IMG/VR virus record: IMGVR_UViG_2698536397_000026 | DNA from: a virus | Taxonomy: Duplodnaviria > Heunggongvirae > Uroviricota > Caudoviricetes | Reading direction: 5' to 3' (one strand) | DNA length: 39,458 nt | Shown: in pieces, positions 10,326 to 38,906 of the stretch | Position numbering within the stretch: the first letter of the stretch is position 1 | Layout of the letters: every line of letters starts with the position of its first letter | Position numbers and translations under genes: made by a program | Notes under the pieces: model-generated | What the model saw: only the letters and a program-made list of their open reading frames with translations | Databases searched by the model: none | Told to the model about the DNA's origin: nothing

Positions 10326-10751
10326 ATGGCAGAAACTCAGATGAGCATGTTTGGTGGTGACAGTGAGCAACTGCACGCCCTTATCGACCGCCTTGATGAC
10401 ATCCCTGATGATGTTCTCAAAAAGAACTGGCCGCGGACCCTGTCAGAACTGGTTGAAGTCACCGGCGCAGAACTTCAGCGTCAGGGGATTGAGCCGGTAC
10501 TGGCCGGTAAACTGGCACGCAAGGTGGCTGCGGCTCAGGCAGCCTATATGGGCGGACGGGGTTATTACCTGCCGGTCGGGGAATCTCTCTTTGCCGAGCT
10601 GCGAAACAATGAGATATTTTCGCGCTGGGACCGGGGCGAGAAAATTGAATCCCTTCGCCGCCATTACCGGATGTCAGAAACCCAGATTTATACCGTCATA
10701 CGCGAACAGCGCCGTCTGCATCTGGCAAGAACGCAACCGCCACTTTTCTGA
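10326..10751 (+). CDS. Mor/C-family transcriptional activator (middle/late gene activator)
   Basis: 141 aa; C-terminal HTH region and ending ...QPPLF, similar to Mu Mor / C proteins as I recall them; own RBS GGAGG after terminator. Confidence 0.7.
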   Translation: MAETQMSMFGGDSEQLHALIDRLDDIPDDVLKKNWPRTLSELVEVTGAELQRQGIEPVLAGKLARKVAAAQAAYMGGRGYYLPVGESLFAELRNNEIFSRWDRGEKIESLRRHYRMSETQIYTVIREQRRLHLARTQPPLF

Positions 10752-10822
10752 TATTCCGCAAAGCCTGCCGCCTCTCCTTCACCGTTACGCTGACTCAGAG
10801 AACATCATGAGACAGCGTAACA

Positions 10823-18549: not shown

Positions 18550-18725
18550 TTGTTTAAGGTATGCAAATGCATTACCTTACCCCCTTCAGGCGCGTGTCGT
18601 GATTTTCTAACCTGAATTTAACGGGCTTTAAAATCTGCGTGAAGCGCCTTTGTATTTTTCCCCTGAAAGCACTTCCTGAAATCCCGCAAAACCCGCCCTG
18701 AAAATTCCCGGCTTATGCTGCCGGA

Positions 18726-37153: not shown

Positions 37154-37399
37154 ATGCCAGAGATTAAAGGCACGGTTACTGAAGAGCTTGTCAAACAGGC
37201 ACTTTATTCTGAAGAAGTGAACCGCGTGCTGAAGGCGCAGGTTCGCAAGGATTTTGAGGCACAAATCGACGCATATGTTGATGAAGTGCTGGCCCGAATG
37301 GTTGGTCGTTCTCCGGCTGAAAACAGCACGGAAAATGAGCCTCAACCCGTAGAGCAACCAGAGCCGGTTCAACCCGGAACTGACGGTACTATGATGTAA
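37154..37399 (+). CDS. hypothetical acidic protein (81 aa)
   Basis: RBS AAGGAAAGGAG before ATG; followed by hairpin. Confidence 0.45.
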   Translation: MPEIKGTVTEELVKQALYSEEVNRVLKAQVRKDFEAQIDAYVDEVLARMVGRSPAENSTENEPQPVEQPEPVQPGTDGTMM

Positions 37400-37408
37400 C
37401 AATACCGA

Positions 37409-37428
37409 CCGGCAGGTTTCCCTGCCGG
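37409..37428. terminator. hairpin (CCGGCAGG-TTTC-CCTGCCGG) between convergent small genes
   Basis: Perfect 8-bp stem; short T-containing tail on + strand. Confidence 0.4.
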
Positions 37429-37437
37429 GTGAATTTG

Positions 37438-37608
37438 TTAATGCACGTTTTGTGTATTTTCCCTCCGGGGAGAACAGGCCGGACATATCAGCATCCTGAA
37501 ACAGGAAGCATTTTTTGGTTTGTATGTCTTGCCATTTTGAGATCGAGAACGGCGATAGATGAGCTGTAAGGGAGTCTTACAGGCAGGGCAAACAGGCTCT
37601 TTATCCAT
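37438..37608 (-). CDS. candidate small zinc-ribbon protein (56 aa)
   Basis: Minus-strand ORF with perfect AAGGAG 9 nt upstream of ATG; two CPAC motifs about 30 aa apart; basic. Confidence 0.35.
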   Translation of the reverse strand: MDKEPVCPACKTPLQLIYRRSRSQNGKTYKPKNASCFRMLICPACSPRRENTQNVH

Positions 37609-37716
37609 GATAAAGATCTCCTTTTTATGCATCTCTGCTTTACAGGAGACCGGGGAATATCATAGGATACGCCACGAGCTCGAAGTAAAGCATTGATGCA
37701 AGTTTTTACAGATTGA

Positions 37717-37752
37717 CCCAGCATAGTTCCAGCTATGCTGGGTTTCCCTTTT
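37717..37752 (+). terminator. strong rho-independent terminator upstream of com-mom control region
   Basis: Perfect 10-bp stem CCCAGCATAG / CTATGCTGGG, 6-nt loop, followed by TTTCCCTTTT. Confidence 0.6.
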
Positions 37753-37794
37753 ATGTAGTATCCTGTTGATTTGAAACATACTACATATACGCGC

Positions 37795-37844
37795 GATCCT
37801 ACCTTCACTGTATAAAAAGTCAATAAAATGATCATTTTATGATC
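37795..37844. promoter_or_regulatory. cluster of three GATC (Dam) sites upstream of com; candidate methylation-sensitive mom control region
   Basis: GATC at 37795, 37830, 37841 within 50 bp in an AT-rich region; Mu mom is known to be controlled by Dam methylation of three upstream GATC sites. Confidence 0.4.
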
Positions 37845-38014
37845 GTTTTCACCACCTAACTCTTCGTTTCTTTAAGTAAATAATCACCGCCCTGAATCAT
37901 TGTTGATGACTTTTAAATCTATTTGTTGTATCAATTAAACAAATCGAATCGATCGTTTTTGTCGATCGATTGCATGAGAAAGGCATCAACAACAAAGCAG
38001 GAGGTTATGCGGCC

Positions 38015-38215
38015 ATGTATCGAAACATACGGTGCCGACACTGCAATAAGCTACTGGCACGGGCCAGTTTCAGTTATCTGGAAGTAAAATGTCCGCGCTG
38101 TAAAACCCTCAATCAAATCACATCTCCGAGCGCCACAGAGCACCCCACATACACAAGGAAATCCTGTCGTGGGGAACAGAAAGCAAGTCACATCCCGTAT
38201 CATCAGCACGCCTGA
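38015..38215 (+). CDS. com: Com-like zinc-finger translational activator of mom
   Basis: [30 protein letters not shown] closely parallels Mu Com zinc finger as I recall it; RBS AGGAGG; overlaps downstream mom-like ORF. Confidence 0.8.
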
Positions 38216-38906
38216 ACTTATTCGCTATAACGACAATATCGTTGGTTATGGCTCCCGTGAGTTGCGGGTTGAGACAATAAGTTGCTGGCTGGCCAGACTG
38301 GTTATCGTCAATAAACATTACAGCCACCGTTTCGTAAATAATTCCTACCTTCATCTGGGTATATTTTCAGAACGGGAACTTGTTGGCGTAATGCAATGGG
38401 GTTACGCCCTTAACCCAAACAGTGGTGCACGCGTCGTAACGGGTACGCAGAACCGAGAATATATGGAGCTTAACCGGCTATGGATGCATGACTGTATGCC
38501 GAGAAACTCCGAATCAAGGGCAATCAGTTACGCGCTCAAGCTAATCAGGCAGCTTTATCCGCAGGTACAGTGGGTTCAGTCGTTTGCAGATGAGCGTTGT
38601 GGCTGTCTTGGTGTCGTGTATCAGGCAAGCAATTTTGATTATGTAGGCAGCCATGAATCAACATTCTATGAACTTGATGGCGAGTGGTATCACGAGATTT
38701 GCAGGAGTGCCATTAAACGAGGCGGACAACGAGGTGAACATCTGAGGGCTAATATCGACAGAGCCAGTGTGCATAAGTTCCGACAGTTTCGTTACATCCG
38801 GTTTCTGAACAAGAGGGCCAGAAAACGCCTCAACACAAAGCTATTCAAAGTCCAGCCTTACCCAAAACCACAAACAGTTAAAACTGGTTTGAAAGAGAGT
38901 GAATGA
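38169..38906 (+). CDS. mom: Mom-like DNA modification protein; start codon uncertain
   Basis: 245-aa ORF overlapping com 3' end, last gene before right end, exactly as Mu mom; track start is GTG. Confidence 0.65.

Follow-up and report, generated by a model that had tools for sequence, protein, structure and literature searches.

The com-mom locus and its GATC sites

Mom-type modification is toxic, and the multilayer control of mom in phage Mu is a textbook case of methylation-dependent gene regulation. We analysed the region that precedes com and mom in a 39,458-nucleotide stretch of viral DNA (IMG/VR record IMGVR_UViG_2698536397_000026, Caudoviricetes), called the window throughout, in which an earlier note had suggested a Mu-like Dam-methylation switch. 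The window holds the right end of an Sp18-type Mu-like Escherichia coli prophage. Close copies of the 1.6 kb around the control region, with 96-100% identity, occur in Mu-like prophages of 233 out of 5426 complete E. coli genomes, and many of these strains produce Shiga toxin. The com gene (38015..38215, plus strand) encodes a zinc-ribbon translational activator of 66 amino acids, as annotated in the RefSeq entry of an identical copy, and residues 1-42 match Pfam family PF10122 (E=2e-12). The mom gene (38169..38906, plus strand; 245 amino acids; PF25680, E=8.5e-77) overlaps the 3' end of com, and its DNA is ~71% identical to Mu mom. The phage also encodes an activator C of the Mor family (10326-10751; PF08765, E=2.8e-32) that is 39% identical to Mu C, and Com, Mom and a Mor-family C, as expected for a com-mom operon under such control, are therefore all present.

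Dam/OxyR control of the Mu mom promoter was described by Bolker & Kahmann 1989 and Hattman & Sun 1997, as these are cited in passages of PMC3378877 and PMC4461284. By analogy, the earlier note had picked out three GATC sites in the AT-rich DNA ahead of com, together with two more that it assigned to the 5' end of com. GATC was found at exactly 37795, 37830, 37841, 37951 and 37964, with the first three lying within 50 bp, and the 270 bp before com (37745-38014) have a GC content of 35.2% compared to 53.3% for the window, confirming both the coordinates and the AT-richness. The assignment of the last two sites was wrong. They belong to the control region, at 64 and 51 bp before the com ATG, which is fixed at 38015 by the RefSeq annotation, by its alignment with residue 1 of the Pfam Com profile and by a Shine-Dalgarno (SD) sequence, AGGAGG, at 37999-38004.

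This is the only place in the window with three GATCs in 50 bp or five in 173 bp, and the local base composition predicts 0.85 GATC in the region before com, where five are seen. In first-order Markov simulations of the whole window, 39% of runs contained a stretch of 173 bp with five or more GATCs, and 84% a stretch of 50 bp with three or more; GATC is not enriched window-wide (134 found, 152 +/- 12 expected). Density, not being significant window-wide, was rejected as evidence, and no excess over chance could be demonstrated for 37795, 37830 and 37841. What does go beyond chance is the conservation and the sequence context of the 37951/37964 pair. A 9-nt repeat, GATCGTTTT, found at both 37841 and 37951, was dismissed since that length is expected by chance.

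A predicted OxyR site over the 37951/37964 pair

Pairs of half-sites were scored against the Toledano consensus for OxyR, ATAGnTnnnAnCTAT, as quoted in PMC2909390 and PMC4856963. An OxyR-like motif, for which the earlier note had advised a search, was placed at 37899-37966, over the 37951/37964 pair. Half-sites at 37921 and 37952 scored 14/20 at a spacing of 31, the best match at that spacing in the 39-kb window, and make up a predicted bipartite OxyR site (37921..37966) in which half-site B (ATTTGTTGTATCAAT, 37921-37935) is separated by 16 bp from half-site C (ATCGTTTTTGTCGAT, 37952-37966). In dinucleotide shuffles of the local 270 bp, a maximum of at least 14 occurred with P = 0.019, and at least four positions scoring 13 or more with P = 0.0003. 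A further OxyR-like half-site, A (ATTGTTGATGACTTT, 37899..37913, 7/10), lies 22 bp upstream of B, and four of the six window-wide matches of at least 13 at a spacing of 22 fall in 37899-37930. Half-sites A and B score 14/20 at this spacing, and the phased triple (37899, 37921, 37952) scores 20/30 (P=0.0013 against local shuffles); half-site A is lineage-specific, and is not conserved in the lineage of the relatives L049 and L028 (loci are given L numbers). The motif, its spacing and the conservation of the 37951/37964 pair argue for Mu-like Dam/OxyR logic before com-mom, and it is rather likely that the earlier note was right about the mechanism, a Dam/OxyR brake on com-mom, and wrong about the sites, with the site at 37921-37966 and not in the three-GATC cluster.

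The two GATCs (37951-37954 and 37964-37967) lie in an extended palindrome at 37947..37971, AATCGATCG-N7-CGATCGATT, which has perfect arms of 9 bp (inverted repeat I14) and is the predicted methylation-sensitive OxyR half-site. They are the only GATC pair in the window spaced by 13 bp, and the only GATCs of the region found inside OxyR-consensus half-sites about 31 bp apart. For comparison we used the proven Dam-sensitive OxyR half-sites whose sequence could be read, namely those of agn43, gtr and Mu. The pattern (A/T)AT(C/T)GATCG-N7-CGATC(G/A)AT(A/T) is common to the window pair, GATC-II/III of agn43, both gtr pairs and GATC2/3 of Mu, and the GATCG-N7-CGATC palindromes read aatcGATCGTTTTTGTCGATCGATTg in the window, tatcGATCGTTTATATCGATCGATAag in agn43, aatcGATCGGTAATACAGATCGATTa in Mu, and ttGATCGGTAACAACGATCAATT and ttGATCGCTTGTATCGATCAAA in gtr. 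Each of the 13-bp-spaced gtr pairs lies within one OxyR half-site, and methylation abolishes OxyR binding (PMC2909390). When scored in the same way, the Mu mom region reached 14/20 at a spacing of 31 (ATAGAAAACGACGAT and ATCGGTAATACAGAT), and agn43 and P22 gtr reached 16/20 and 18/20, respectively, both at a spacing of 32.

The methylatable half-site of agn43 (flu), containing GATC-II/III, is the closest in sequence, with 18/20 identical positions (GATCGTTTATATCGATCGAT in agn43, GATCGTTTTTGTCGATCGAT in the window) and a partner half-site 31-32 bp upstream. The window thus has the agn43-type palindrome, (A/T)ATCGATCG-N7-CGATCGAT(A/T), together with a partner half-site at the agn43 distance of 31-32 bp. 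OxyR has a purely repressive role at agn43, where methylation prevents it from binding (PMC2909390). Unlike the window, agn43 has three GATCs, and its site runs from the -10 into the transcribed region, with the isrC/agn43 5' end at the first GATC; moreover, agn43 phase-varies and is a host adhesin gene, not an activator-dependent phage late operon. P22 gtr and Salmonella opvAB resemble the window in having 13-bp GATC pairs within single half-sites, and the gtr half-sites are 32 bp apart. In gtr, however, GATC pairs are present in two half-sites, with OxyR activating from AB and repressing from BC, which is the basis of phase variation. In the window, in contrast, only one of the three half-site-like sequences before com carries GATCs, and the one at 37899 is not kept in L049/L028.

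Likeness to Mu mom extends to the com-mom operon, the Mor/C-family activator and the bipartite OxyR-like site with its spacing of 31 and score of 14/20. The com-proximal half-site is in both cases the palindrome AATCGATCG-N7-(C/A)GATCGATT with GATCs 13 bp apart, the flanks of the pair are similar (aatcGATCGtttttgtCGATCGATTg in the window, aatcGATCGgtaatacaGATCGATTa in Mu), and the best local alignment of the two control regions pairs window 37930-37961 with the Mu OxyR region. The Mu Pmom fragment has been defined as -58 to +20 (PMC3378877) and its sequence is given in PMC4461284, from which we placed the Mu start at L001:1247. The Mu GATCs, which lie 109, 91 and 78 bp before the com ATG and are spaced by 18 and 13 bp, would then fall near -87, -69 and -56, ahead of both the C site and an ACCACA-19-TAAGAT promoter. 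The window does not have three GATCs spaced by 18 and 13 bp. It has two, 13 bp apart; where half-site B of Mu has a third GATC at its 3' end, 18 bp further upstream, the window reads CAATT. In Mu, 75 bp separate the end of the site from the com ATG, and a C site (TTAT-N6-ATAA), a -35 element (ACCACA), a 19-bp spacer and a -10 element (TAAGAT) come after the site; none of these is recognisable downstream of the site in the window. Since only 48 bp remain there before the com ATG, ~27 bp fewer than in Mu, the Mu layout downstream of the site cannot be kept. The element appears, by position and sequence, to be the counterpart of the Mu mom switch in a variant layout.

Conservation was assessed among relatives found in scans with the Mom protein, which yielded 21 genomic and 80 viral loci; com was located in 87 loci, including Mu, two E. 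coli copies and the window. GATC-N9-GATC is present in 37 of the 56 distinct 200-bp sequences upstream of com, and 51 of the 56 have at least two GATCs between -130 and -40. The few without any GATC belong to marine or otherwise non-enteric relatives. Among 11 aligned members of the window's own clade (com identity 46-100%), the flanks diverge, but neither the pair nor its 13-bp spacing varies. In 18 representative diverse control regions, the best partner half-site lay upstream of the pair, at 31 bp (16 regions) or 32 bp (two regions), and upstream partners had a mean score of 6.7/10 as against a null of 4.46, whereas downstream partners were at null level (4.39). From the invariant pair and the phased upstream partner in relatives, it follows that this phage family conserves a unit made up of half-site B, a gap of 16 or 17 bp and the GATC-pair half-site C, corresponding to 37921-37966 in the window. 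A third GATC is found in half-site B in many lineages, but in neither the group of the window nor L051. In the L049 group and L028, com is 97% identical to that of the window, and half-sites B and C and the pair are kept, while everything upstream of ~37906 has been replaced.

D108-like loci (L061, L064, L065, L072, L080, L084, L086-L088 and L090-L093) have GATC1 and GATC2 spaced by 18 bp and CATC at the position of GATC3 (GATCGTCGGTTTGCATC, 98 to 67 bp before com). This CATC is a natural version of the non-methylatable change, preserving the OxyR consensus, that was used in the gtr and opvAB experiments. In locus L004 (2273-3325; LC727881, Mu_JNE082796 within an Stx2c phage), the same control region and com (96.8% identical) are present. 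In place of mom, com is followed there by a gene for a 350-amino-acid C5-cytosine DNA methylase (PF00145, E=2e-42) which, like mom, overlaps the 3' end of com, so that in L004 the modification gene has been exchanged under one control module.

Promoter candidates and proposed mechanism

Plys (10753-10769) and PI (18681-18697) of this phage share the sequence ATyCCGCAAArCCyGCC, with TAyGCT 30 nt after CCGCAAA. This box, found before lys and gene I and likely to be the binding box of the phage C activator, is distinct from the ATAAyCCC box of Mu, which lies at 28 nt. The L049 lineage has a similar box, AATACCGCAAAGC, that faces its divergent 97-amino-acid gene. Ahead of com, a C-box-like sequence on the plus strand (37880..37891, ATAATCACCGCC) resembles the Mu Plys C-box ATAATCCCGCAC and is an uncertain candidate for a C site; it does not match the Plys/PI box of the phage itself and is absent from the L049 lineage.

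Four candidates for the mom promoter are given without ranking: P1, ACCACC-16-TAAGTA (37851-37878); P2, in which ATAATCACCGCC at 37880 is combined with TAAATC at 37914; P3, ATGACT-17-TATCAA (37906-37934), a match to consensus only; and P5, TTGTCG-19-CATCAA (37959-37989). P3 would put the GATC pair at about +11 and +24. In L051, L052, L053 and L005, -10-like hexamers (TATACT, TATACT, TATAGT and TAGATT, respectively) are found ~10 bp after the pair, and the window is degenerate at that position (GAGAAA). Alignment of the Mu promoter half to the window was not significant, and a long-range inverted repeat (37891-37913/37979-38001) is not conserved in L049.

The following mechanism is proposed. 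When 37951 and 37964 are unmethylated, an OxyR tetramer would bind half-sites B and C and block com-mom transcription; Dam methylation of the pair would exclude OxyR, and the late activator C could then turn com-mom on. This logic would hold wherever the promoter lies. If transcription starts ~29 bp before com, half-site C would cover the -35 and the spacer, in the manner of OxyR(BC) in gtr, and if the promoter is further upstream (37906-37934 or 37880-37919), the site would fall in the early transcribed region, as in agn43. The promoter-proximal pair of P22 gtr, at -46/-33, is overlapped by the repressing OxyR(BC) site (PMC2909390). The -10-like hexamers of the four relatives point to a mom promoter immediately after the pair; with a promoter there, the likeness to gtr would extend to this arrangement, and by this analogy the site probably overlaps the promoter. 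We infer from the sequence that OxyR would bind at 37921-37966, that methylation would prevent it from doing so, and that its binding would be repressive.

A number of points weigh against this assignment. Across six spacings, four unrelated places in the window score 14/20, the consensus being degenerate and AT-rich. Half-site B contains no GATC, hence only two sites are methylatable. The 48 bp between the site and the com ATG make for a geometry unlike that of Mu, and repression by occlusion is presumed. No copy of the phage's own late-promoter C box precedes com, and scans for Pmom with the sigma-70 consensus and weight matrices were uninformative, as the known Mu Pmom was not recovered either. 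Finally, the palindrome at 37947-37971 also scores as a weak terminator on the minus strand.

The terminator score, the lack of window-wide significance of GATC density and an unremarkable fold of the putative com leader RNA (z = -0.96) would all be in keeping with none of the GATCs being regulatory, in which case the cluster would have arisen by chance in AT-rich spacer DNA and the pair would be just a hairpin-forming palindrome or a weak terminator. We regard this as improbable, because the pair, its spacing and the phased partner half-site are conserved across phages with unalignable flanks, and closely match experimentally proven sites. The lack of GATCs here in the marine or non-enteric relatives also fits a host-specific Dam/OxyR function, and not a structural hairpin.

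Of the whole control region, the predicted OxyR/Dam element, with its fixed 31-bp half-site spacing, is the one part that enterobacterial com-mom phages have kept in common. A Dam/OxyR switch at 37921-37966 would mean that in Sp18-type prophages, which are common in Shiga-toxin-producing E. coli, this element has been reduced to two GATCs and placed next to or onto the promoter. Such a switch would offer a compact natural variant for asking how many methylatable sites OxyR repression needs, and would bear on heterogeneous expression of mom or, in some relatives, of a C5-cytosine methylase under the same control region. For annotation, it corrects which GATCs should be mutated or probed. A literature search of incomplete coverage turned up neither a study on how mom is regulated in Sp18-type prophages nor methylome data for these sites.

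The three-GATC cluster and the leftward promoter module

The cluster that the earlier note had put forward (37795..37844, GATC at 37795, 37830 and 37841) is not OxyR-like, and is part of a module with a leftward promoter. A promoter scan identified a sigma-70 promoter, P_left, on the minus strand at 37796..37823, consisting of TTGACT (37823-37818), 16 bp and TAGGAT (37801-37796), with the GATC at 37795-37798 overlapping the downstream end of the -10. In relatives, P_left reads TTGACT-16-TAAGAT (L051, L119 and L121) or TTGACG-16-TATAAT (L052 and L120). Hexamers and spacer length are thus preserved around unrelated spacer sequences, which appears to be the footprint of a real promoter. An 18-bp perfect palindrome, ATAAAATGATCATTTTAT (37823..37840), with GATC 37830 at its centre, abuts the P_left -35; its centre would be at about -42 relative to the inferred leftward start, and no further copies of the palindrome were found in the window. 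GATC 37841 lies 11 bp beyond GATC 37830.

The cluster could be the counterpart of the three GATCs of Mu and itself the mom switch, with the 37951/37964 pair incidental. It is the only cluster of three sites in 50 bp in the window, it lies upstream of ACCACC-16-TAAGTA (37851-37878), which bears some likeness to the Mu ACCACA-19-TAAGAT, and GATC 37795 and 37830 are retained in the diverged L051. However, no OxyR motif above 11/20, which is background, was obtained over the cluster at any tested spacing, and the GATC spacings of 35 and 11 bp differ from those of Mu and agn43 (18/19 and 13 bp). The cluster is also absent from L049/L028, whose com-mom is near-identical, and from L052; the resemblance to the Mu promoter falls short of significance (P ~0.39 by shuffling); and L032 and L115 have retained the overlapping -10 hexamer but not GATC 37795. 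The proposed equivalence to the Mu GATCs could thus not be upheld and is very unlikely to be correct. The three GATCs at 37795-37841 are outside the proposed switch, in a separate lineage-specific module with a strong leftward promoter.

The cluster may instead provide Dam-responsive control of P_left, tuning the divergent zinc-ribbon gene described below, and this would be compatible with a Dam/OxyR switch at 37921-37966. The transposase promoters of IS10 and IS50 have a GATC in the -10 and are tuned by methylation. The position and hexamers of P_left are conserved across diverged relatives, a GATC overlaps the -10 in the window (TAGGATC) and in L051, L119 and L121 (TAAGATC), these loci have another GATC 6-7 bp before the -35, and the perfect palindrome is centred on GATC 37830. 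On the other hand, GATC is missing from both positions in L052 and L120, whose -10 is the consensus (TATAATc), and L051 has the GATC but not the palindrome, which matches the motif of no known factor. Since L052 has no cluster GATC at all, and L032 and L115 have lost the -10 GATC yet kept the hexamer (TAGGATT), the constraint appears to be on the promoter rather than on Dam sites. We therefore see Dam-responsive control of P_left as a tentative possibility that is doubtful on present evidence.

The 270-bp divergent region might also be a two-part epigenetic device, in which OxyR shifts between repressing B+C and non-repressing or activating A+B, with P_left coupled to the same methylation, giving rise to heritable ON/OFF lysogen subpopulations or replication-coupled firing. 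In such a device only the half-site at 37952 would be methylatable, the -10 GATC and the GATC-centred palindrome would couple the zinc-ribbon gene, and the zinc-ribbon partner might be a Com-like RNA-binding regulator. This is a speculative and improbable elaboration of the switch at 37921-37966.

The cluster travels with the divergent zinc-ribbon cassette, and this co-segregation of the module is directly observed, as are the sequence, motif, spacing and conservation of the 37921-37966 element. The zinc-ribbon open reading frame (37438..37608, minus strand) encodes 56 amino acids (MDKEPVCPAC...GKTYKPK...CPACSP), has a strong SD and, throughout this clade, is divergent from com. No family match was obtained for it in Pfam or PHROG; homologues of 46-48% identity occupy the same position in L118, L119 and L120, and L121 has a partial match of 54%. 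The window version of the region upstream of ~37906, which is one of two E. coli versions and was found in 214 genomes, is always accompanied by the minus-strand zinc-ribbon gene. The L049/L028 lineage, which is without the three-GATC cluster, also lacks the zinc-ribbon gene and has a different divergent gene instead.

The leftward transcript would have an unusually structured 5' leader of 180 nt (37609..37789, minus strand) with three hairpins, including 37752-37761/37778-37787 and a stem at 37716-37726/37733-37743. The minimum free energy of the fold was -63.1 kcal/mol compared to -39.4 +/- 4.1 for shuffled sequences (z = -5.7), and eight pairs of a consensus fold over six homologues show compensatory changes. 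The last helix of the leader pairs GGTCTCCT with the SD AAGGAGATC, sequestering the SD. The leader could be an unknown cis-regulatory RNA; an Rfam search of 37300-38300 returned one sub-threshold chance match only, and no family. A further GATC, at 37615-37618, falls after the SD of the zinc-ribbon gene and before its ATG (AAGGAGATCTTTATCATG) and is invariant in all homologues, where it is probably kept for the SD/anti-SD helix and not for methylation.

A 'frameshifted hypothetical protein' annotated by RefSeq at 37438-37900, into which the zinc-ribbon frame has been merged, was rejected as a coding explanation of the cluster and is probably an annotation artefact, since the intact 106-amino-acid version in L029 crosses the terminator hairpin and looks non-coding. 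At ~37868, a T that most relatives (L029, L038, L032 and L050) have in cgttt(t)ctttaag is absent from the window. The missing T is the 'frameshift' behind the RefSeq pseudogene call, and leaves 16 bp instead of 17 in the spacer of ACCACC...TAAGTA.

Between the invertase gene and com, the prophage carries extra cargo (DUF6645, DUF1378 and DUF826) that is absent from Mu, and downstream of mom, according to the RefSeq annotation of an identical copy, the prophage ends and is followed by the host gene ldrA. The upstream cargo genes are split from the com-mom control region by a strong terminator-like hairpin with a T-rich tail (37715..37744, plus strand; 13 pairs, six of them G-C), which is also hairpin 2 of the leftward leader. 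A promoter-like sequence on the plus strand, TTTACA-18-TAGGAT (37639-37668), is found ~50 nt before this hairpin, and because it precedes a terminator-like structure, a short plus-strand transcript antisense to the zinc-ribbon leader is conceivable.

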